A stretch of 58,567 nucleotides of DNA from a phage: sequence record PZ445423.1; one strand, 5' to 3'. The translations under genes and the position numbers were made by a program. The notes below the pieces were generated by a model. It had not been told where the DNA came from, searched no databases, and was given only the letters and a program-made list of their open reading frames with translations. Below are positions 24,590 through 54,420 of the stretch, piece by piece. Numbering within the stretch: position 1 is the stretch's first letter; the number at the start of each line of letters is the position of its first letter.

Positions 24590-26575
24590 TTAGGCGTATC
24601 CCATGTCTTCGAGATACTTCTCTGCTTTAGCTATATAAGCATCATAATCTATGTCGTCCGGTACTTTATCCGGTAGCGTCATGATTGGGACACCTCCCGC
24701 GCTACCAGCTACACGGTTGCCCGAGTTAGCATAGATTATTTCAGGTGTTTCTTCATTAGTGCTTAAATACCAGCGTACAACCTTACCCAAAAATTCGCCA
24801 TTCCATACCGCGCCACCTTTTACCGCACGTAAGATAATGAATTTTCTAATATCGTTGCAATTGCGTATAGTACGAGAAACAGGCGTACCGTGGGCCAAAC
24901 ATTCACATACAGCTTCCATAATGATTTCACCAGTACAGTTCTTTTGAAGACCTGTCTTTGCGAACCACCCTTTACGTTTAATTTCAACATTTCCTTCCTC
25001 GTCAGGTTCTTTTACTGCAACATAGTTATTAACGTTAGCACTGTACAGCTTGTCATAGTAGTTGGATTCCATTTCAAAACCTGTTACGGATTCCCACCAC
25101 TTGATCATATTATCAACGAAGTCCTGCATATGGTCCGGATACTTAACCACAATACCATCCGTGTTGGCTGAAATTACTTTAACACTATTTAACTCAAATG
25201 CTTCAATAAGCATCAACAGTGAAAGTTGCCCTGTTAATGTAACTTGTATCAATAATTGCGGCGCGTAAAGGACAGACCACATAGACCCTAACTTACCGAA
25301 CGATCCGTTGATTACGATCTTCAGCGTGTTGGCTGTGTTCTTGTCCCCTGAGTGCTTAGCTGCAATACGTCGGTCTACAATGCTTTTATAAACACGAAGA
25401 AACGCTGGTCCCAACTGCTCAGGATACAAGCCCTGATTAAGAATAATAGAAGGGTAATAGGACGTTACGTCAATGTCCCGCTTTTTAATACCTGGCTCTT
25501 TACCATGCCCGGCACATTCTTCAGAGCTGTGCAAACCACCAATGCCCATACGGTAGACACCGTCCGCAATCTTAATTTCAAGGCCTGTTAACGCTGGAGG
25601 TAAGCTAACACCACCGTTATCGCTAACAACAAAGCGGCAGTCCCGAACAATATCCAAAACACTATTCATCAGAGGTGTTTGAAAACGAATAAAGTCCGGT
25701 ATGTTATATGCATACTTTGTTCCAGGATAAACTTGTGGACGTTGCGGACGCACACCAGTTAACGCTTGAATTTCGTGTTTAATTACGTCTTCTGCAATCT
25801 GCGCATCAGAACGTGAACGCAGATCCACACCGTATTCTTGTGACATAATTTCACGGAGGTGCAAAGGCTCTTGCAATGCAATAAAACATTCTTCTGTCTG
25901 TACAAGGTCGTTAATACAGTACCAGCGTACAATTAACATCTGGTCCTGCGTCAACATTGTATTTGGCTTGAACGGTAAATCCTGCATACGGCGAGTATGT
26001 ACACGTCCGCCATATTGTTTCAAACCACCAGATCCAGGCAGAACTTCCATAATATCAATGTGGTTAACGTTCTGCATACGCTTAAGACGGTAACTCTTCA
26101 ATACATCCGAAGGACGCCAGTCTTCAACGATTATTTTATCGGTCGCGTCTTTAAGCTGTGCATTAGAACAGCCGTTGAGCGCAAGCGTAGCAATGGGCAT
26201 ATCGTACCCGTTACCGTTAAAGCTCACGATAAGGAAGTTTGTCATTACCCAGTTAAGTAACAAGCAATTCAAACTACAACCATGATACATTTCGAAGTAG
26301 ACAACTTTCTTAGTCCGTACTCCGCGAAACGCGATTAAGAAATAGTTTGGATAACATTCAATATCGTATACAAGCGGTTCGCGGTTAATCCATGCTTGAA
26401 TAAGTTCGTCCTGCGTATACAGGTTGTATTGGAAGTTCCGCGCTTCCTCAAGGTTAGGTAGATAATCCGGGCGCTCCCAAGTGCGCTCCGGCGGTAAACG
26501 TTTAACCTTTTCTTTCTTTGCTTTTGGCTCAGGCGGTAAGTCCTGCCAAAAGAAACCAATAGCATCTGTCCGCAT
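24590..26575 (-). CDS. DNA polymerase, family B
   Basis: Exo-like YDIECYPN; DVTSYYPSI (motif A, DxxSLYPS); KIVINGSFGKLG (motif B, KxxxNSxYG); SANTDGI (motif C, DTDS-like). Start set at the ATG overlapping the upstream stop (TAATG). Confidence 0.85.
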   Translation of the reverse strand: MRTDAIGFFWQDLPPEPKAKKEKVKRLPPERTWERPDYLPNLEEARNFQYNLYTQDELIQAWINREPLVYDIECYPNYFLIAFRGVRTKKVVYFEMYHGCSLNCLLLNWVMTNFLIVSFNGNGYDMPIATLALNGCSNAQLKDATDKIIVEDWRPSDVLKSYRLKRMQNVNHIDIMEVLPGSGGLKQYGGRVHTRRMQDLPFKPNTMLTQDQMLIVRWYCINDLVQTEECFIALQEPLHLREIMSQEYGVDLRSRSDAQIAEDVIKHEIQALTGVRPQRPQVYPGTKYAYNIPDFIRFQTPLMNSVLDIVRDCRFVVSDNGGVSLPPALTGLEIKIADGVYRMGIGGLHSSEECAGHGKEPGIKKRDIDVTSYYPSIILNQGLYPEQLGPAFLRVYKSIVDRRIAAKHSGDKNTANTLKIVINGSFGKLGSMWSVLYAPQLLIQVTLTGQLSLLMLIEAFELNSVKVISANTDGIVVKYPDHMQDFVDNMIKWWESVTGFEMESNYYDKLYSANVNNYVAVKEPDEEGNVEIKRKGWFAKTGLQKNCTGEIIMEAVCECLAHGTPVSRTIRNCNDIRKFIILRAVKGGAVWNGEFLGKVVRWYLSTNEETPEIIYANSGNRVAGSAGGVPIMTLPDKVPDDIDYDAYIAKAEKYLEDMGYA

Positions 26576-37598: not shown

Positions 37599-38483
37599 TT
37601 ACTGCTGCCACGGCGGGACTGCTGCTTGTGCCGGATGCGGTTCAGCTTGCTGCTGTGGCTGAGCTTGCTGCTGAGGCGCTGCTGCCTGGCCCGGCTGCGC
37701 TACCTGCTGCGCCCACGGCTGCTGAGCTGCTTCCGGTGCTACTGGCTGTTGTACCGGAGCTTGCTGCACTGGCTGCTGTGGTGCTGCGTTTTGAGCAGGA
37801 TTATCCCACGGCTGCGGTGCGGCATTCTGCCACGGTTGTGCTGCTGCGCCCTGCTGTGGTGCTGGTTGCTGCACTGGCTGCTGAACTGGTTGCTGTTGCT
37901 GCACCGGAGCTTGCTGCTGTACAGGCGCTTGCTGTTGCTGTGCAAACGGGTTAGCTGCTGGTTGCTGAGGTGCTGCGCCCGGGAAAGCTGGCTGCTGTGC
38001 TGGCGCACCTGCACCGAACGGGTTAGCTACTGCCGCTTGAGCACCCATTGCTGGAGCACCTGCTTCTTTTTCTGCATACTTAACCGGATCGTTGATGTTA
38101 GCATAACCGTTAGGCTCGTTGCTGTCTTCATAACCTTCCTGAGAACGAACTTTCAGACGCAGGTTCAGCGGAATGTTATGCAGTTGAGAAGGAGTATCCC
38201 AGCGAATTACGCCAACCGCATGGGAAAGCGCGCCCAGTTGTTCGTATGCGATACGCACAGTATCTTCGTTGTCGTTGATAACGTTGTAACGAGCAAAGAT
38301 TTTACGACCTTTAGCAAAACCATCAATGATGCTAAACGTTACCTGGATCGCCATACCGCCATTTTTGGTCGGTTTAAATTCAGATGCTTCAATTACTGCT
38401 TTATACCAACCTTTCGGCAATGCGCCGTAAGAAGGTGCTTGATAGCTGCTCGCGTCAAAGTGGAAATTAGTTGGCATAGTCAT
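37599..38483 (-). CDS. DUF669-like ssDNA-binding protein with Gln/Pro/Ala-rich tail
   Basis: 294 aa; globular N-terminal ~140 aa followed by a long low-complexity tail (QQQAPVQQQAPVQQQQPVQQ...); coupled to the ATPase gene. Confidence 0.55.
   Translation of the reverse strand: MTMPTNFHFDASSYQAPSYGALPKGWYKAVIEASEFKPTKNGGMAIQVTFSIIDGFAKGRKIFARYNVINDNEDTVRIAYEQLGALSHAVGVIRWDTPSQLHNIPLNLRLKVRSQEGYEDSNEPNGYANINDPVKYAEKEAGAPAMGAQAAVANPFGAGAPAQQPAFPGAAPQQPAANPFAQQQQAPVQQQAPVQQQQPVQQPVQQPAPQQGAAAQPWQNAAPQPWDNPAQNAAPQQPVQQAPVQQPVAPEAAQQPWAQQVAQPGQAAAPQQQAQPQQQAEPHPAQAAVPPWQQ
37610..38000. repeat. low-complexity CTGCTG/GGCTGC-type DNA repeats
   Basis: Degenerate tandem triplet repeats encoding the Q/P/A tail; the complementary strand gives a spurious 317-aa ORF. 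Confidence 0.6.
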
Positions 38484-44581: not shown

Positions 44582-45073
44582 CTTACACCTCACAGAATGT
44601 ACATAAACCAAAAATAACCAGCTACGAAAATAGCACCCGCAAATAATTTTAAAATCTCGAACATTGTTCCCTCCGTTAACTTTATGCTGTAAGTATAGCA
44701 GGACTTGCGATGTATGCAACAACTTTAGACTTGAAATGCATCTATAAAATAGCACGATTTGCCTTTACCTTTGATCCGTCTAGCTGTACTATTAACTCAT
44801 AAACAGAACGGAGGATTACAAAATGGTCATGCTGAATAAAGTATATAGCACAATGGGCGCGGATTATAAAGTTGTACGTCACCCGCGTACTGGTAAATTT
44901 GAAGCATATATCCGTCCAATGGGTGAAAGTTGGATGTATTACGGTACTTATGATGATGCTGAGCAAGCTTATAAAGAAGCGGAAAGTGCCGCGGAAGCAT
45001 CCGAAATTATGGCAAGGTACGACGTCGATGATTACTACCTTAACTAAAAATAAAGGGCCTTTCGGCCCTTTAT

Positions 45074-47416
45074 TTATTCCTCTTCTCCTAAGTTTGCCAT
45101 AATACCTTCAACATCTTGCGTAATGCGCCAAGCTGCGCCAGTGAATCCCAGTTTGATAGTCTCCTCCCGTGTTACCGGAACAAGAGCACCCATAGCAACC
45201 ATCTCTTTGATCGTAGACTCAATTGCTGCGGACAATCCGTGGTGATAGTTTTTAAACGCGGACTTACTTGCAAGACGAGTAGTAATGTCACCCCGCGTGA
45301 TAATACCTTCTTTACGCAGATCTACACGTTTAACTTTCACCCAATCTTTAGTTAGATAATTGACACAAACCTGGCACATAGTACGGATACGAGCTTCGTC
45401 ATTAGTACCAATACCCCCACTATGCCATTCCTTCATAATGATATCCTGTCCATGACGCACAAAGTCCAAGGCCCATTGAACATGATAGGTTTGCACAACC
45501 GGATTGATCCAGTTTTCTCCCACAGCTAACAGGGCGGATAGACGTAACACCTTCAGGTGCGCACGGTTCCACGGCTGACGGATTGCTTCGTCTTTGGTTG
45601 CGTTAATATTACGATCACATTCGTCGTTAAACTGATCGCATAATGCTTCCGCTTCTGGACTAAACTGCACTTCAATACTTTGATGCTTTGCCATTGCGAC
45701 TAAGGTGTGGTTAACAAGATGGCACACCATATCACGCAAATGCTGATCCATTGTAGTCTGCTGGTTCTTGTTTAAAGGTGGTCGATCACCTTCATAGCGG
45801 ACAACATGGAAACGGGATAAGAATCCATCCTCCATCATTTCACGGGTTAACGCTTCAAAAAACGTGTCCGGTGTTGTTTCGCCCATGATGCTATAGGCCA
45901 CACCTTGTTGTGCTTCCGTATTATTAGCCTTATCAGAATAAGACATACCACCAACAATAGACATCTGACCGGACTTTTGATAAACATCGGTAAGATCATT
46001 CTTGAAGCTTTGCATCGGTGAACCTGCTGGCGCCGTAGCCATTGCTTTAATAATCTTACCAAACTCACCGTTCAAGTTGATAAAAGATTGTTTGTCCGCA
46101 AAAGATTTACGCAGTGCGGAGCCGGAAGCACATCGGTCAAAAGATACAAAGCTATGAATCTGCGGAAACGGTTCCTGAAGCTGGCTAACTATATTAGATA
46201 AGCCACTGTTCAACGTTTCTTTACCAACACCAGAACGGGCAATAAGGACGAAATATCCATTAAGACCGGATTGAGGAATCTGCCAAACCTTCCCGCATAC
46301 GCCAGCCATAAATCCTAGTGCTGTCACAATAGAAATTTCTTTCACTGGTCGGACGGATGCTTTGTAGATATACTTCGCAAGCTCCCCAGCAAGTCCCGGC
46401 GGCCAGTCAATGGCGGTTGCATCAATAGACGTACTTTCTGCAACTACGGTCTGCCCCTGTGTTGTTTCAACAGTTACGGGCATTTCCGCTACCTGTTGCA
46501 TTGCACTGTGTGCCGCTTGCATACGGGCAGCATAATCCCGCGCCAGCGCCGCTACGTTTTCCTGGGCAATGCGCTCACGCTCCATGCGACCGCGACACAT
46601 ACGCAAGCAACGGTCAATATGAACATTGTTCTTATTAGCCTTCTCACGTTTGCCCAGTGCACTATAACGGAACAGACGACGACATTGCTCATTACTTTCC
46701 GTGTAAAATGCATACATAGAAATAAGGGCAAGGTCTGCTTCAGACTGGGAAGGGAAACCCATTTCAACCCATTCACCATTAAATAACCGCGCATACTTAT
46801 CGCCGTTATCTGCTTCAAGCGCACGCTGATGAATAGTTGCATCATCTTCTACCGGATCTTTTTCTACTAGTTCAATTTCATATGTCTTGCGCTGAAGATC
46901 AATTTCATTCACAAGCATAGTAAGGTAATGATCACGTTCTGCAACTGGTTTGTTGTAGACGGGATTGCCCGTGCAGATAATAAAACGCTCCTGACTATAA
47001 ACCTCAACACCATCACGTCGACGACCTTTACCAATGTTACCTCTTAACCACAGGTGAACACCCAGGCCTGAGCGACTTACTTCGGTGTAAGTATCGAACG
47101 CAGTCATGATCTGTTCGAAGCGGCGCAACTGCTCCGGCGTCGTGTGCTTCTTGGGATCCGGTTCATTGGTCGCATTCTTCACATCCAGGTCGATGCAGGT
47201 GAACGGATCTTGTGCAGTAAGCACAAAGCCAATATAAGGTTTATTGAAATGAGCGGCGCAACCTTTGGCAGCTTCAAACGTCATAAGCATATCCGGATCG
47301 GTAACGTCCGCCGCCATCAAACGTCCAATATCGTTATCCCATACGAGCGGTTTCTTGTCCGCATCGGCCACCGCCCATTGTGGGAAAGCTTTAATTTCAG
47401 CGGGAAACAGTTCCAT
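45074..47416 (-). CDS. primase/helicase (primase-polymerase-like N-terminal domain plus P-loop NTPase domain)
   Basis: 780 aa, SD AAAGGA; acidic N-terminal FTCIDLDV segment; central P-loop-like IARSGVGKETL; largest replication ORF. Confidence 0.65.
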   Translation of the reverse strand: MELFPAEIKAFPQWAVADADKKPLVWDNDIGRLMAADVTDPDMLMTFEAAKGCAAHFNKPYIGFVLTAQDPFTCIDLDVKNATNEPDPKKHTTPEQLRRFEQIMTAFDTYTEVSRSGLGVHLWLRGNIGKGRRRDGVEVYSQERFIICTGNPVYNKPVAERDHYLTMLVNEIDLQRKTYEIELVEKDPVEDDATIHQRALEADNGDKYARLFNGEWVEMGFPSQSEADLALISMYAFYTESNEQCRRLFRYSALGKREKANKNNVHIDRCLRMCRGRMERERIAQENVAALARDYAARMQAAHSAMQQVAEMPVTVETTQGQTVVAESTSIDATAIDWPPGLAGELAKYIYKASVRPVKEISIVTALGFMAGVCGKVWQIPQSGLNGYFVLIARSGVGKETLNSGLSNIVSQLQEPFPQIHSFVSFDRCASGSALRKSFADKQSFINLNGEFGKIIKAMATAPAGSPMQSFKNDLTDVYQKSGQMSIVGGMSYSDKANNTEAQQGVAYSIMGETTPDTFFEALTREMMEDGFLSRFHVVRYEGDRPPLNKNQQTTMDQHLRDMVCHLVNHTLVAMAKHQSIEVQFSPEAEALCDQFNDECDRNINATKDEAIRQPWNRAHLKVLRLSALLAVGENWINPVVQTYHVQWALDFVRHGQDIIMKEWHSGGIGTNDEARIRTMCQVCVNYLTKDWVKVKRVDLRKEGIITRGDITTRLASKSAFKNYHHGLSAAIESTIKEMVAMGALVPVTREETIKLGFTGAAWRITQDVEGIMANLGEEE

Positions 47417-47427
47417 GATTTATCCTT

Positions 47428-47643
47428 TTACTGAGAACTAACCATTGCACAACCGATGGCAGCAAATAAGTGCTTCTTAGTCTCGTTGATCACTTTCTCT
47501 GCATCCAGATAGCTCTCATAATGTCCAAGGTAAACAATAGTACCTGCAACCATAATATAAGCTGTGCGGTAATGCATATAATACCCAATGAACCATCCCT
47601 GCCCCCGAAGCTTATTTTGTCCAACTTCACTAAGTACCATCAT
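47428..47643 (-). CDS. hypothetical protein
   Basis: 71-aa ORF overlapping the upstream gene end. Confidence 0.35.
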   Translation of the reverse strand: MMVLSEVGQNKLRGQGWFIGYYMHYRTAYIMVAGTIVYLGHYESYLDAEKVINETKKHLFAAIGCAMVSSQ

Positions 47644-47843
47644 GACCTCCGACGCTTATCGCCTTGCATCTTTTCCAGGGCGGGTACTGCTAAGGAACGT
47701 TTGTAGATGTACTGGTTAGCAATTCTGATGGCGCCCGGGATGTTGTCACGTATGCGCGACATCTTAAACTTAGATATGCCATAACGGTCTTCAATTTCCG
47801 CCGCCGTTATGTAGTTCAAATCAAATTCCGATTCGTGATCCAT
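47640..47843 (-). CDS. small putative HTH DNA-binding protein
   Basis: 67 aa from the ATG at 47843 (SD GGAGGG; track start is TTG); ITAAEIEDRYGISKFKMSRIRDN looks like a helix-turn-helix. Confidence 0.35.
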   Translation of the reverse strand: MDHESEFDLNYITAAEIEDRYGISKFKMSRIRDNIPGAIRIANQYIYKRSLAVPALEKMQGDKRRRS

Positions 47844-50690: not shown

Positions 50691-50903
50691 TCACTTAATT
50701 TGTACCAAATCGTATTCCTTGTAAATGTCGCTAATGTACATATCGAACTGACCCATTAAGAAGATTTCGGCCTCCTCCCAGCTTGGGGCAGATACATAAC
50801 CAGCTATTTTACCGGACGCGAGTTCCACTAATTTGAATTCCATGATGCTACCTTTAATGTGGTTAAGCAGTATTGCTTTGTTGAAGTAATAATAGCCTTG
50901 CAT
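50691..50903 (-). CDS. hypothetical small protein
   Basis: 70-aa ORF without a clear SD; an internal ATG at 50843 with a weak AAAGGT SD would give 50 aa. Confidence 0.3.
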   Translation of the reverse strand: MQGYYYFNKAILLNHIKGSIMEFKLVELASGKIAGYVSAPSWEEAEIFLMGQFDMYISDIYKEYDLVQIK

Positions 50904-51086
50904 CGTGATATTGAATAGGCCAAAAGTGCTCTTTTAGAATTGTTTTGCATCTAGTGAAAAATACGCTTGCCCTGCATGTTTAGCACTAAGGGCCTAACTA
51001 ACATCACATCATCTGGAGTATTCGCGCAGGTGTACACATACATATAAAGCTGCCAAAATATTTTTATAAAAAGATGCAAAAAGGTG

Positions 51087-51115
51087 TAGACACATGATCG
51101 GTCTAGCACTACTAT
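51087..51115 (+). promoter_or_regulatory. candidate promoter, copy 1 of a repeated element
   Basis: TAGACA, a 17-nt spacer containing CATGATCGGTCT, then TACTAT; ~48 nt upstream of the ATG at 51163. Confidence 0.4.
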
Positions 51116-51162
51116 ATACACATACCGCAAGGTGCTACAAATTAACTTAAAGGGTACACATT

Positions 51163-51447
51163 ATGTCCATCGTCACTATGTCGTTCTTCGACCATTGCAA
51201 TAACGAAAAACAAATTATCGTGAACCTGCAAAAAGGGTTTGTTGTCGCACGCAATGCTAACCGCCAATGCATCGCGCTAACCGATTTTGCTTTTCGCCTT
51301 AACGTGGACAACACCACCGCCAAAAATATCGTTCACGATACAGCGTTGGAAGCTGCTCACGCTGCGAAGGATAAAGGTATCCGCGCCGCACGCGAAATCA
51401 TGCACAAGGCGCTCGGCATCACGTTCTTCGTTGGGATTAAGGGGTAA
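51163..51447 (+). CDS. hypothetical early protein
   Basis: 94-aa ORF with SD AAAGGGT; first + strand gene after the divergent region. Confidence 0.45.
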   Translation: MSIVTMSFFDHCNNEKQIIVNLQKGFVVARNANRQCIALTDFAFRLNVDNTTAKNIVHDTALEAAHAAKDKGIRAAREIMHKALGITFFVGIKG

Positions 51448-51452
51448 CTACT

Positions 51453-51596
51453 ATGGCACGCAAATATTCGCTTACACGCGCACAACATGCTTTATTATTG
51501 CAGGTTATGCGCATGGAGTACGAAGAGACTACATGGGCGCAAGCTATGCAGACAGGGCGCGAGTTCTACGCGCAACTAATAGCACAAAATGCCTAG
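51453..51596 (+). CDS. hypothetical small protein
   Basis: 47-aa ORF (MARKYSLTRAQHALLL...) with SD AAGGGGT; below the track's size cutoff. Confidence 0.3.
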   Translation: MARKYSLTRAQHALLLQVMRMEYEETTWAQAMQTGREFYAQLIAQNA

Positions 51597-51625
51597 ACAA
51601 CATGATCGGTCTGGTGGATACTACA
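51594..51625 (+). promoter_or_regulatory. candidate promoter, copy 2 of the repeated element
   Basis: TAGACA-a-CATGATCGGTCT (exact 12-mer shared with copy 1) then GATACT; ~30 nt upstream of the ATG at 51656. Confidence 0.35.
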
Positions 51626-51655
51626 CACATCAACCAAACAACGGGGGTAAACAAA

Positions 51656-51883
51656 ATGCGTAGTTTCAAATGTGTAAGCGTAAATGCTACTGGTAACGGT
51701 CTGTTCACGGCAGGTAATGTATATGACTTCAACATGGAAAGTTATAAAGACACAACGCTTACAGGTGTAATGTTCGGTGGCGCTCGTGTCGTTCGCTGCC
51801 ATTTAAACAAGAACACGGAAAATGAATATACCCTTATCAGTCGCTACACGGGCGAGCCGTTAGCTGTGTTCCATGCAGCTTAA
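51656..51883 (+). CDS. hypothetical small protein
   Basis: 75 aa with SD GGGGGT; same frame as the track's 198-aa ORF, whose upstream part looks non-coding. Confidence 0.4.
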   Translation: MRSFKCVSVNATGNGLFTAGNVYDFNMESYKDTTLTGVMFGGARVVRCHLNKNTENEYTLISRYTGEPLAVFHAA

Positions 51884-51960
51884 GCTATAACGCACACAGC
51901 GCCGCGCTAGCGATCTAATGTACATAGGTAATGGTAATGCATTAGCTCGGGCGAAACGGG

Positions 51961-51999
51961 CGCACAGCGTCGCGCACAGCTCGCACAGCGCACACAGAC
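51961..51999. repeat. degenerate tandem CGCACAG(C) repeats in a non-coding GC-rich stretch
   Basis: CGCACAGCGTCGCGCACAGCTCGCACAGCGCACACAGAC. Confidence 0.5.
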
Positions 52000-52317
52000 C
52001 CACGCAGGCCCAGCCGCGCAACCCGACCCATCCTTTTCCAGGTACTTGGATCGCTGGGGCGTGCCCTGTCCATCCTGATAGTAAGTCCTTGTCTAAATCT
52101 CACCTGTCACATTCCTATCCACCTACATCCATGACCCCACCTACCTTCTTTTTGAATATATTGCGCTCATCCTTTCTAAATATATGGATTTTGGTAGTAA
52201 ATTCTGAGTCGTCAACGTATAATCCGTCTTGTAGCTGCTCCATAGCTACCATCTTTAAGCGGATGCAACCAATTTCTATCAATCCACACCTGTTTTTAGA
52301 GCATCAAGGAGGTATTT

Positions 52318-52581
52318 ATGTGCGACTCCAGTACAAGCGCTTCACCCAGCACCTCCAGCAATGTGGTTACAGAGGTAAATGCAATGCGATTAGGCCCATA
52401 TCGCGGGTATTATGGTCGGGCAGCATGGAATGACGCTACTCAACGTTTTGAAGGCTGGATTATCTGTCCGGAACGTGTTAAATTTCATTCCGTAAAAGAG
52501 AAAAATATCGTTCTTAATTTTCAAAAATGTGTCACTAAATATGTAGAGGAGCAAGAAGAATGTCTTATGTGTCAGCATTAG
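52318..52581 (+). CDS. hypothetical protein
   Basis: 87-aa ORF with strong SD AAGGAGGT 7 nt before the ATG. Confidence 0.45.
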   Translation: MCDSSTSASPSTSSNVVTEVNAMRLGPYRGYYGRAAWNDATQRFEGWIICPERVKFHSVKEKNIVLNFQKCVTKYVEEQEECLMCQH

Positions 52582-54027: not shown

Positions 54028-54420
54028 ATGCTATTAGTCGTCACCGGAGGTCGAGATTTTAAGCATGTGGAGTATATTTACGCTCAATTGGATAAGCTGC
54101 ATATGCAAAGAAGGATAACCACACTTCGCCACGGTGACGCTGACGGTGTTGACCGGATTTGCGCACATTGGGCGGAGCGCAACGGTATTAAGACAGAAGC
54201 ATTCCCTGCCCCGTGGGGCAATCTTTCCTTACCAAATACCAAGATACGGTATAATGCCAAAGGTGCTTATAATGCACAAGCAGGCGCTTACCGCAACCAA
54301 TTAATGCTGGATACTGATCCTAAACCAGATCACGCTATTGTGTTTCCTGGCGGAGCTGGTACTATGGATATGTACAGACGGATTAAAGCATCCGGTATTC
54401 CTTACACTTTAGCGGGGTAA
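54028..54420 (+). CDS. SLOG/LOG-like Rossmann-fold protein (YspA/DprA-like)
   Basis: 130 aa; LLVVTGGRDF, GDADGVD and FPGGAGTMDM resemble the Gly-rich nucleotide-binding motifs of LOG/SLOG proteins (PGGxGT); SD GGAGA. Confidence 0.4.
   Translation: MLLVVTGGRDFKHVEYIYAQLDKLHMQRRITTLRHGDADGVDRICAHWAERNGIKTEAFPAPWGNLSLPNTKIRYNAKGAYNAQAGAYRNQLMLDTDPKPDHAIVFPGGAGTMDMYRRIKASGIPYTLAG

Follow-up and report, generated by a model that had tools for sequence, protein, structure and literature searches.

Two paralogous TAGACA cassettes of a Seuratvirus genome as probable sigma-70-type promoters at the junctions of small-gene modules

The phage sequence PZ445423.1, a stretch of 58,567 nucleotides that was analyzed at its full length and is called the window here, contains two copies of the hexamer TAGACA followed by an exact 12-mer, CATGATCGGTCT, each located in front of a small open reading frame (ORF) on the + strand. 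A first interpretation made from the letters alone (the sequence-only reading) had regarded this repeat as a phage-specific promoter or operator family, for example a site for an early regulator, which raises the question of what the repeat is and which part of it matters. Our comparison suggests that the two copies, designated P1 and P2, are paralogous sigma-70-type promoters for the host RNA polymerase that head modules of small genes and double as recombination junctions, a reading to which we assign a probability of roughly 65%. The promoter part of this interpretation is well supported in silico, and early promoters of the host type in duplicate, as this pair would be, are nothing unusual.

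The window is a near-complete genome (58.6 kb) of the genus Seuratvirus (Queuovirinae). Thirty-four phage records, including slur01, Greed, CAjan, Seurat, and the BASEL phages Bas21-25, match the region at 90-99% identity, and all of those assigned to a genus belong to Seuratvirus. P1 and P2 are located just to the right of the switch in gene orientation, where the divergent region spans 50904-51162, and from this position we infer that the genes behind them are early genes.

The repeat itself was confirmed, with the two TAGACA starts 507 bp apart and one extra A between hexamer and 12-mer in P2; the longest exact run common to both copies is 13 nt, ACATGATCGGTCT. The -10-like hexamers that had been proposed, TACTAT for P1 and GATACT for P2, were also identified, both at a spacing of 17 nt from TAGACA, and the small ORFs reported to lie 30-50 nt downstream begin 47 nt (orfA) and 33 nt (orfC) past the respective -10 hexamer. 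The ORF that follows each copy has the same orientation and a ribosome-binding site; the ATG of the second one, orfC, is at 51656 and not at 51657. Compared with the sigma-70 consensus, P1 and P2 have a -35 hexamer matching at 5/6 positions, a 17-nt spacer, and a -10 hexamer matching at 4/6 positions, giving a score of 9/12 each. Both -10 hexamers keep A2 and T6, as do the variants CATAAT and TATTAT that occur in the same family. Transcription is predicted to start near 51120-51123 at P1 and near 51629 at P2, with leaders of ~41 nt and, up to orfC, ~27 nt, and the stop codon of orfB is the TAG of the P2 -35 hexamer. The AT-rich tract upstream of P1, aaaatatttttataaaaagatgcaaaaaggtg, is a possible UP-like element, and no recognizable copy of the AGCAC-N4-KGCC box described below was found in it. 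Folding z-scores at P1 and P2 were -0.26 and -0.28. For orfA, orfB, orfC, and their neighbors, no informative Pfam or NCBIfam match was obtained, and their PHROGs are of unknown function.

When the window was simulated with a first-order Markov model, ~4.6 pairs of identical 12-mers no more than 1 kb apart were expected per genome, and a search for the 12-mer that allowed up to two mismatches gave 4 matches against 3.2 expected. The 12-mer pair by itself is not significant. The extended match, which with its gap spans 19 nt, is significant: 0 of 600 simulations produced two identical 13-mers within 1 kb that both followed one 5-mer at offset 0 or 1, as the two 13-mers here follow TAGAC. A search of the window for further copies of the whole motif, as the sequence-only reading had advised, covered mismatches, indels, and every TAGACA accompanied by a -10-like hexamer, and returned none beyond P1 and P2. 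A partial third copy, consisting of spacer and -10 (TTTGATCCGTCTAGCTG TACTAT), was found at 44770-44792; it matches the P1 spacer at 12/17 positions, and P1 from spacer position 3 through the -10 at 18/21. An exact scan of IMG/VR with ACATGATCGGTCTRG gave 60 matches of one each, slur01 among them, a count that equals chance for a 15-mer; the contexts of these matches were not inspected.

The comparison of the region covered 23 related phage genomes, to which three more distant ones were added later. Conserved copies, on which the sequence-only reading depended, do occur in related genomes: P1 is present in every genome compared and P2 in 13 of 24. P1 was found in two forms, type A (19 loci) with an AT-rich upstream tract and the spacer YATGATCRRTCTARCNN, and type B (5 loci) with a different upstream sequence and the spacer YRGATCARGYCATGNNG. 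TAGACA and TACTAT are invariant in both types and 6/17 spacer positions are variable in each; over types A and B together, variable positions number 0/24 in the hexamers versus 12/34 in the spacers (Fisher p = 7e-4). The spacer is 17 nt long in every family member, and single-base indels are always paired among P1-A, P1-B, P2, and the P2 of yong3, as would be expected from a constraint on promoter geometry and not from a binding site in the spacer. P2 has the same form in 11 genomes, a variant form in yong3, and another -35 in phiG7; variant P2 forms were identified in yong3, STP-SP5, phiG7, and an IMG/VR contig, and the genomes that lack P2 have another version of the orfB C-terminus. Across the 24 genomes, TAGACA does not vary in P1 of either type or in the common form of P2, and the -35 hexamers of divergent members are TAATCA in phiG7 and STP-SP5 and TAGGCA in STP-SP5.

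These patterns are consistent with a division of roles between the two copies. P1, in the divergent control region and facing the leftward promoter PL, would act as the universal promoter, and P2 would be an accessory internal promoter that is fused to the 3' end of orfB and travels with one variant of the orfB C-terminus. Selection would maintain both hexamers, their distance of 17 nt, and the region of the start site. The 12/13-mer shared by the spacers would reflect common descent or gene conversion between cassettes, and would not be a binding site.

The surroundings of P1 and P2 are mosaic. In pairwise alignments, P1 forms a homology island (51054-51147) between unrelated flanks, and breaks recur at 51047/51054, 51147-51170, 51437-51452, 51497-51512, 51658, and 51884-51887. 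The first gene differs among the relatives, with at least three alternatives behind P1 and at least three behind P2. The genome of SA80RD carries a chimera of a type-A left half and a type-B right half, joined at TACTATATA. Additionally, the promoter at the P1 position in STP-SP5 has a P2-type -10 and leader, a form that phiG7 carries at the position of P2. Since the promoter-leader cassettes of ~60-90 bp are the sole sequence common to otherwise unrelated small genes, they may provide crossover points for the gain, loss, and swapping of modules, and crossovers in these cassettes would explain the plasticity of the small genes. Recombination between short direct repeats has been described in the genus, with a spontaneous 4.7-kb deletion between 14-bp direct repeats in Seuratvirus CSP1 (PMC13577005).

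Several observations weigh against the interpretation of P1 and P2 as promoters. A consensus scan of the window found 26 promoter-like sites versus 27.3 in shuffled sequence; a hexamer match alone thus proves nothing, and the evidence must come from comparison. The relatives compared all belong to one genus, mostly at 85-98% identity, so that part of the conservation is recent ancestry, and P2 with its flanks is almost invariant and hence uninformative on selection. No terminator-like site was identified at P1, at P2, or between them, and P2 may therefore be redundant. GATC and TC, both in the 5' half of the spacer, are common to P1-A, P1-B, and P2, with GATA in the P2 of yong3 as the sole exception, which is unexplained if the spacer is fully neutral. 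In the literature, we found no transcription start or transcriptome for any Seuratvirus. As to earlier descriptions, no Seuratvirus promoter was found described in the literature, and the words 'promoter', 'motif', 'regulat', and 'intergenic' never occur in the comparative-genomics paper on the genus. SA126VB and SA80RD have promoter features in GenBank, but these annotate consensus matches other than P1.

If the repeat were instead itself the operator of an early regulator, with TAGACA...CATGATCGGTCT overlapping the promoter spacer, the identity of the 13-mer in both copies while other parts differ would be accounted for, as would the kept GATC and TC, the partial dyad TAGAC-N9-GTCTA in P1, and the similar spacer of the partial third copy. 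However, the spacer is the most variable part among the relatives (CATGATCGGTCTAGCAC versus TATGATCAATCTAACCC, TAGATCAAGTCATGTCG, and TACGATAAGTCTTAGGT), and the 12-mer proposed as a conserved operator-like feature lies in the least conserved segment of the cassette. Its register to the hexamers shifts by 1-2 nt among P1-A, P1-B, and P2; compared with P1, the 13-mer of P2 is displaced by 1 nt away from the -35, and P2 lacks 1 nt at a later point. The genomes of SeppeHuegi and KS_W4 show 3/12 mismatches between their two copies, the dyad is lost in variants, and the STP-SP5 orthologs have unrelated spacers. GATC was rejected as a special feature, as its genome-wide frequency is as expected (217 sites in the window versus ~204-224). 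The comparison has thus already largely refuted an operator within the 12-mer, which we regard as quite improbable. An even smaller chance, close to negligible, is left for the repeat as a coincidental match or a recombination scar devoid of promoter function. The numbers of 12-mer pairs expected within 1 kb and the promoter scan that is not enriched over shuffles would fit this explanation, but the extended match is absent from all simulations, and hexamers and spacing are invariant and indels compensated across 24 genomes in several contexts. In a separate, informal comparison with known E. coli sites, LexA, MetJ, CRP, Lrp, sigma-54, IHF, and a GntR/HutC-type site (GGTCTAGACC) gave no fit conserved among the variants and were rejected. 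The helix-turn-helix protein that the sequence-only reading had put forward as a candidate regulator (47640-47843, - strand, 67 amino acids) had no match in Pfam (E <= 0.1) or NCBIfam (E <= 1) and belongs to a PHROG of unknown function. By eye, this ORF resembles excisionase/AlpA-type helix-turn-helix proteins.

Taking P1 and P2 as predicted host-type promoters, we identified a small phage-specific family that consists of PL, P1, P2, and P447 together with an orphan element, R (Table 1); PL, P447, R, and the box that they share are new here, and these five are the only members in 58.6 kb. The idea of a phage-specific family was therefore retained with respect to promoter geometry and the existence of a small family, but the conserved element is the box and not the 12-mer. 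This box, (AT)AGCAC-N4-KGCC, directly abuts the -35 and was found in PL, P2, type-B P1, both STP-SP5 promoters, and P447. It spans -48 to -36 in P2, PL, and P447, and is absent at P1 of the window. In an anchored alignment of 14 cassettes, its information content is the highest, above those of the -10, the -35, and the spacer. The sequence ATAGCACNNNNKGCC with up to one mismatch has 7 matches in the window versus 1.8 expected, a number reached in 0 of 100 shuffles, and the three exact matches of AGCACNNNNKGCCTA all lie in 50916-51595. In IMG/VR, an exact scan for the box gave promoter geometry only in a Seuratvirus contig, and no box was found in Nonagvirus 9g.

The more distant relatives led to the finding of PL, which lies within a block (50854-50938) with a conservation of 97-99%, also in comparisons in which its flanks differ; its ortholog in STP-SP5 keeps the box, the -10, and the leader. 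The ATG listed for the ORF at 50691-50903 (- strand), at 50903, is upstream of the predicted PL start (~50882) and has no ribosome-binding site. From the position of PL, the first leftward gene probably starts at the internal ATG 50843 (MEFKLVE..., preceded by AAAGG) and not at 50903. R is back to back with the PL box, ~64 bp from centre to centre, and is conserved in all type-A relatives, in STP-SP5, and in the IMG/VR contig.

P447, which contains the partial third copy, is conserved across the genus. In STP-SP5, its box is identical at 15/15 positions and its -10 is identical, with the -35 changed from TTTACC to TAGAGC and the spacer diverged. P447 belongs to a second small divergent control region (44665-45075), a + strand unit among the - strand replication genes beside the primase. 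In the same region, a leftward candidate noticed by eye, TTGCAT-16-TATACT, faces the gene that starts near 44664. Outside the genus, ~200 bp of the Salmonella phage SWJM-02 (Felixounavirus) are 94-95% identical to 44650-44842 of the window and lie beside a homing endonuclease. In SWJM-02 (1490-2120), a gene cassette is inserted in P447 between box and -10, and the insert is an ORF of 127 amino acids with its own promoter of box, TAGACA, 17 nt, and CATAGT. This copy in an unrelated myovirus is evidence of cross-family transfer.

Table 1. Coordinates of the promoter-like elements and of the genes around them in the window
Feature	Position	Strand	Details
AT-rich tract upstream of P1	51055-51086	+	sequence as in the text; within the homology island, all type-A relatives
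P1 core	51087-51115	+	TAGACA 51087-51092, CATGATCGGTCT 51093-51104, AGCAC, TACTAT 51110-51115
P1 spacer	51093-51109	+	17 nt; contains the 12-mer
P2 upstream box	51581-51593	+	AGCACAAAATGCC; inside the 3' end of orfB; exact AGCACNNNNKGCCTA match
P2 core	51594-51622	+	TAGACA 51594-51599, extra A 51600, CATGATCGGTCT 51601-51612, GGTG, GATACT 51617-51622
PL	50889-50930	-	box AGCACTTTTGGCC 50930-50918, -35 TATTCA 50917-50912, 17 nt, -10 TATTAT 50894-50889
R, orphan box	50982-51000	+	AGCACTAAGGGCC plus TAACTA; GTATTC 17 nt downstream, not -10-like
P447	44751-44792	+	box AGCACGATTTGCC 44751-44763, -35 TTTACC 44764-44769, P1-like spacer 44770-44786, -10 TACTAT 44787-44792
orfA	51163-51447	+	94 amino acids; first gene after P1
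orfB	51453-51596	+	47 amino acids; in the predicted P1 unit
orfC	ATG 51656, stop 51883	+	
AP2-like ORF	44823-45047	+	74 amino acids; strong ribosome-binding site GGAGG; predicted P447 gene
Hairpin terminator	45048-45075	+	directly after the AP2-like ORF
Structural genes	1 to ~22.5 kb	+	
Replication genes	~50.9 kb down to 24.6 kb	-	
Block of small ORFs	51163 to window end	+	

The box, centred near -42, may be the site of a phage regulator, either an activator or a shut-off repressor, that coordinates PL, P2, P447, and type-B P1, with the box-less P1 as an unregulated immediate-early promoter. This possibility, which would extend the host-type promoter interpretation and not replace it, is tentative, and we hold it to be less probable than its absence. 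It agrees with the box being the most conserved part of the 14 aligned cassettes, with the enrichment of ATAGCACNNNNKGCC and the clustering of exact AGCACNNNNKGCCTA, with the box of bipartite form and a variable A/T-rich centre, and with its restriction, as far as promoter geometry in IMG/VR and the lack in 9g indicate, to Seuratvirus. The -35 hexamers of PL and P447 are poor (TATTCA and TTTACC), the orphan R is conserved although no -10 accompanies it, and the retention of the P447 box in STP-SP5 while -35 and spacer change is called a signature of activator dependence. However, the binding protein for the box is a candidate only, the cassettes are paralogous and their common sequence can be ancestry, and the dyad symmetry of the box is weak (TAGCAC versus TAGGCC). 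At infection, PL would presumably have to work on naked DNA, and the host RNA polymerase could also read the A/T-rich centre (-43 to -40) as a proximal UP subsite. Boxes and AT-rich tract might otherwise belong to a replication origin, as iterons and an unwinding element, given that three boxes lie within 700 bp beside a 30-nt AT-rich tract and a further box lies beside the primase gene. Cumulative GC skew of the whole window has its minimum at 48-51 kb, at the divergent control region, which would suit an origin close by, but skew also follows gene orientation, its maximum near 21 kb being the point where the two gene blocks converge. Across four promoters, which lie on both strands, the distance of the box from the -35 and the -10 is fixed, and no initiator was identified, which makes an origin an improbable explanation, on a par with an operator in the 12-mer.

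A candidate for a protein that acts on the box is the AP2-like protein encoded behind P447. Its Pfam AP2 match scored 19.5 bits, below the cut-off of 33.3 (E = 1.3e-3), and its best PDB sequence matches were the AP2 domains of WRI1 and ERF1. The AlphaFold2 model, with a predicted local distance difference test score (pLDDT) of 77.5, consists of a beta-sheet followed by a helix, and a Foldseek search of this model against PDB gave nothing significant. In the searches made, homologs of the protein turned up in close relatives only, and the box and the AP2-like protein were both restricted to the genus. A role of this protein as the box regulator is speculative, the sole link being the box in its own promoter. 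In such a circuit, specific to Seuratvirus, the box would be an operator or activator site for the AP2-like regulator of 74 amino acids, which would be autoregulated through P447 with its best-conserved box; PL, P2, P447, and R would be co-regulated and P1 would come first. We consider this circuit unlikely, although it would, if true, assign a free-standing phage AP2 domain as a transcription factor.

The arrangement has counterparts in several known systems. In coliphages, tandem early promoters such as A1, A2, and A3 of T7 place several host RNA polymerase promoters at the entry end of the early region, and the -10 of T7 A1 is GATACT, the same hexamer as in P2. P1 and P2 resemble the T7 set as related promoters, here predicted, for the host polymerase at the entry end of an early region, but they are 507 bp apart with two genes between them, and one of the two promoters is dispensable in half of the relatives. 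Activator-dependent promoters, including the T4 MotA middle promoters and those of Mu Mor/C and lambda CII, have a box that overlaps or replaces the -35 (class II, near -41.5). The pattern of PL, P2, and P447, in which the box beside the -35 and the -10 are conserved but the -35 itself only weakly so, resembles these promoters, whereas P1 has no box, the -35 hexamers of P1 and P2 are good (5/6), the activator is a candidate only, and the MotA, Mor/C, and CII sites are unrelated in sequence to the Seuratvirus box.

In addition, the promoter-early stem-loops (PeSLs) of T4-type phages (Arbiol et al. 2010, PMC2839356; Comeau et al. 2014, PMC4122927) are likewise short conserved cassettes, with a sigma-70-like early promoter of the kind predicted for P1 and P2, that are repeated in a plastic region of small non-essential genes, are located at the boundaries of insertions, deletions, and replacements, and offer homology for modular shuffling. 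Unlike PeSLs, P1 and P2 have no stem-loop or terminator partner, and 2-5 copies occur here in a siphovirus versus dozens in a myovirus. Divergent PL/PR promoters were predicted by BPROM in Nonagvirus 9g (Kulikov et al. 2014, PMC4276943), a phage of the sister genus, in the same subfamily, that also has one intergenic region with two opposed promoters between two transcription blocks, but its region lacks the box and a TAGACA-type cassette and its promoter sequence differs.

Seuratviruses, including BASEL Bas21-25 and CAjan, are common coliphages for studies of 7-deazaguanine modification and anti-phage defence, and the present analysis supplies coordinates of control regions for PL, P1, the accessory P2, and the separate unit at 44.8 kb, and revises where the first leftward gene is likely to start. 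The features that merit experiments are the box, the orphan R, and the AP2-like gene. In CAjan, preQ0 replaces G in GA and GGC contexts (PMC7544227), and the P1 of CAjan is identical to that of the window. Should the same modification occur in the window, it would affect the G in TAGACA, in GATC, and in GATACT, and the promoters would then offer a natural test of how sigma-70 reads a -35 with a major-groove modification.

Other observations concern sequences near the small-gene modules. No Rfam family reaches its gathering score anywhere in the window. The stretch at 51884-52317 (434 bp) has no convincing gene, carries CGCACAG-like repeats at 51890-52000, and is conserved in most relatives; it has internal breakpoints at 51944, ~52063, and 52110, no Rfam match, and a folding z-score of -0.69. 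Near 52110-52360, the genomes of Skure, WildeMaa, phiG7, Dru_SM1, and SA80RD carry inserted homing endonuclease genes. Between the type-B or hybrid P1 and orfB, SA80RD (2670-2930) and WildeMaa (2240-2513) have ~250-300 nt of unannotated sequence that is absent from the window and could be a long leader or a small RNA. In Greed (1947-2059), GC-rich repeats, GTGTGCCGGAAATACCAGG, were found just upstream of P1, between the equivalents of window positions 51047 and 51054. KS_A8, CSP1, and CAjan have an insertion at this site, the sequence of which was not read, and three similar repeats occur in the divergent region of 9g (~24950-25030). These repeats, which are absent from the window, could be iterons or regulator sites.

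Elsewhere in the window, the + strand ORF at 54028-54420 encodes 130 amino acids with a YspA/SLOG-family domain (Pfam YAcAr, E = 1e-17), and relatives annotate its product as 'GTP-binding domain' or 'putative DNA binding protein'. Seven imperfect direct repeats with a 45-nt unit, 60-71% identical and rich in GCTGCTG, lie within a - strand ORF at 37627-37935 and are probably a low-complexity coding repeat.

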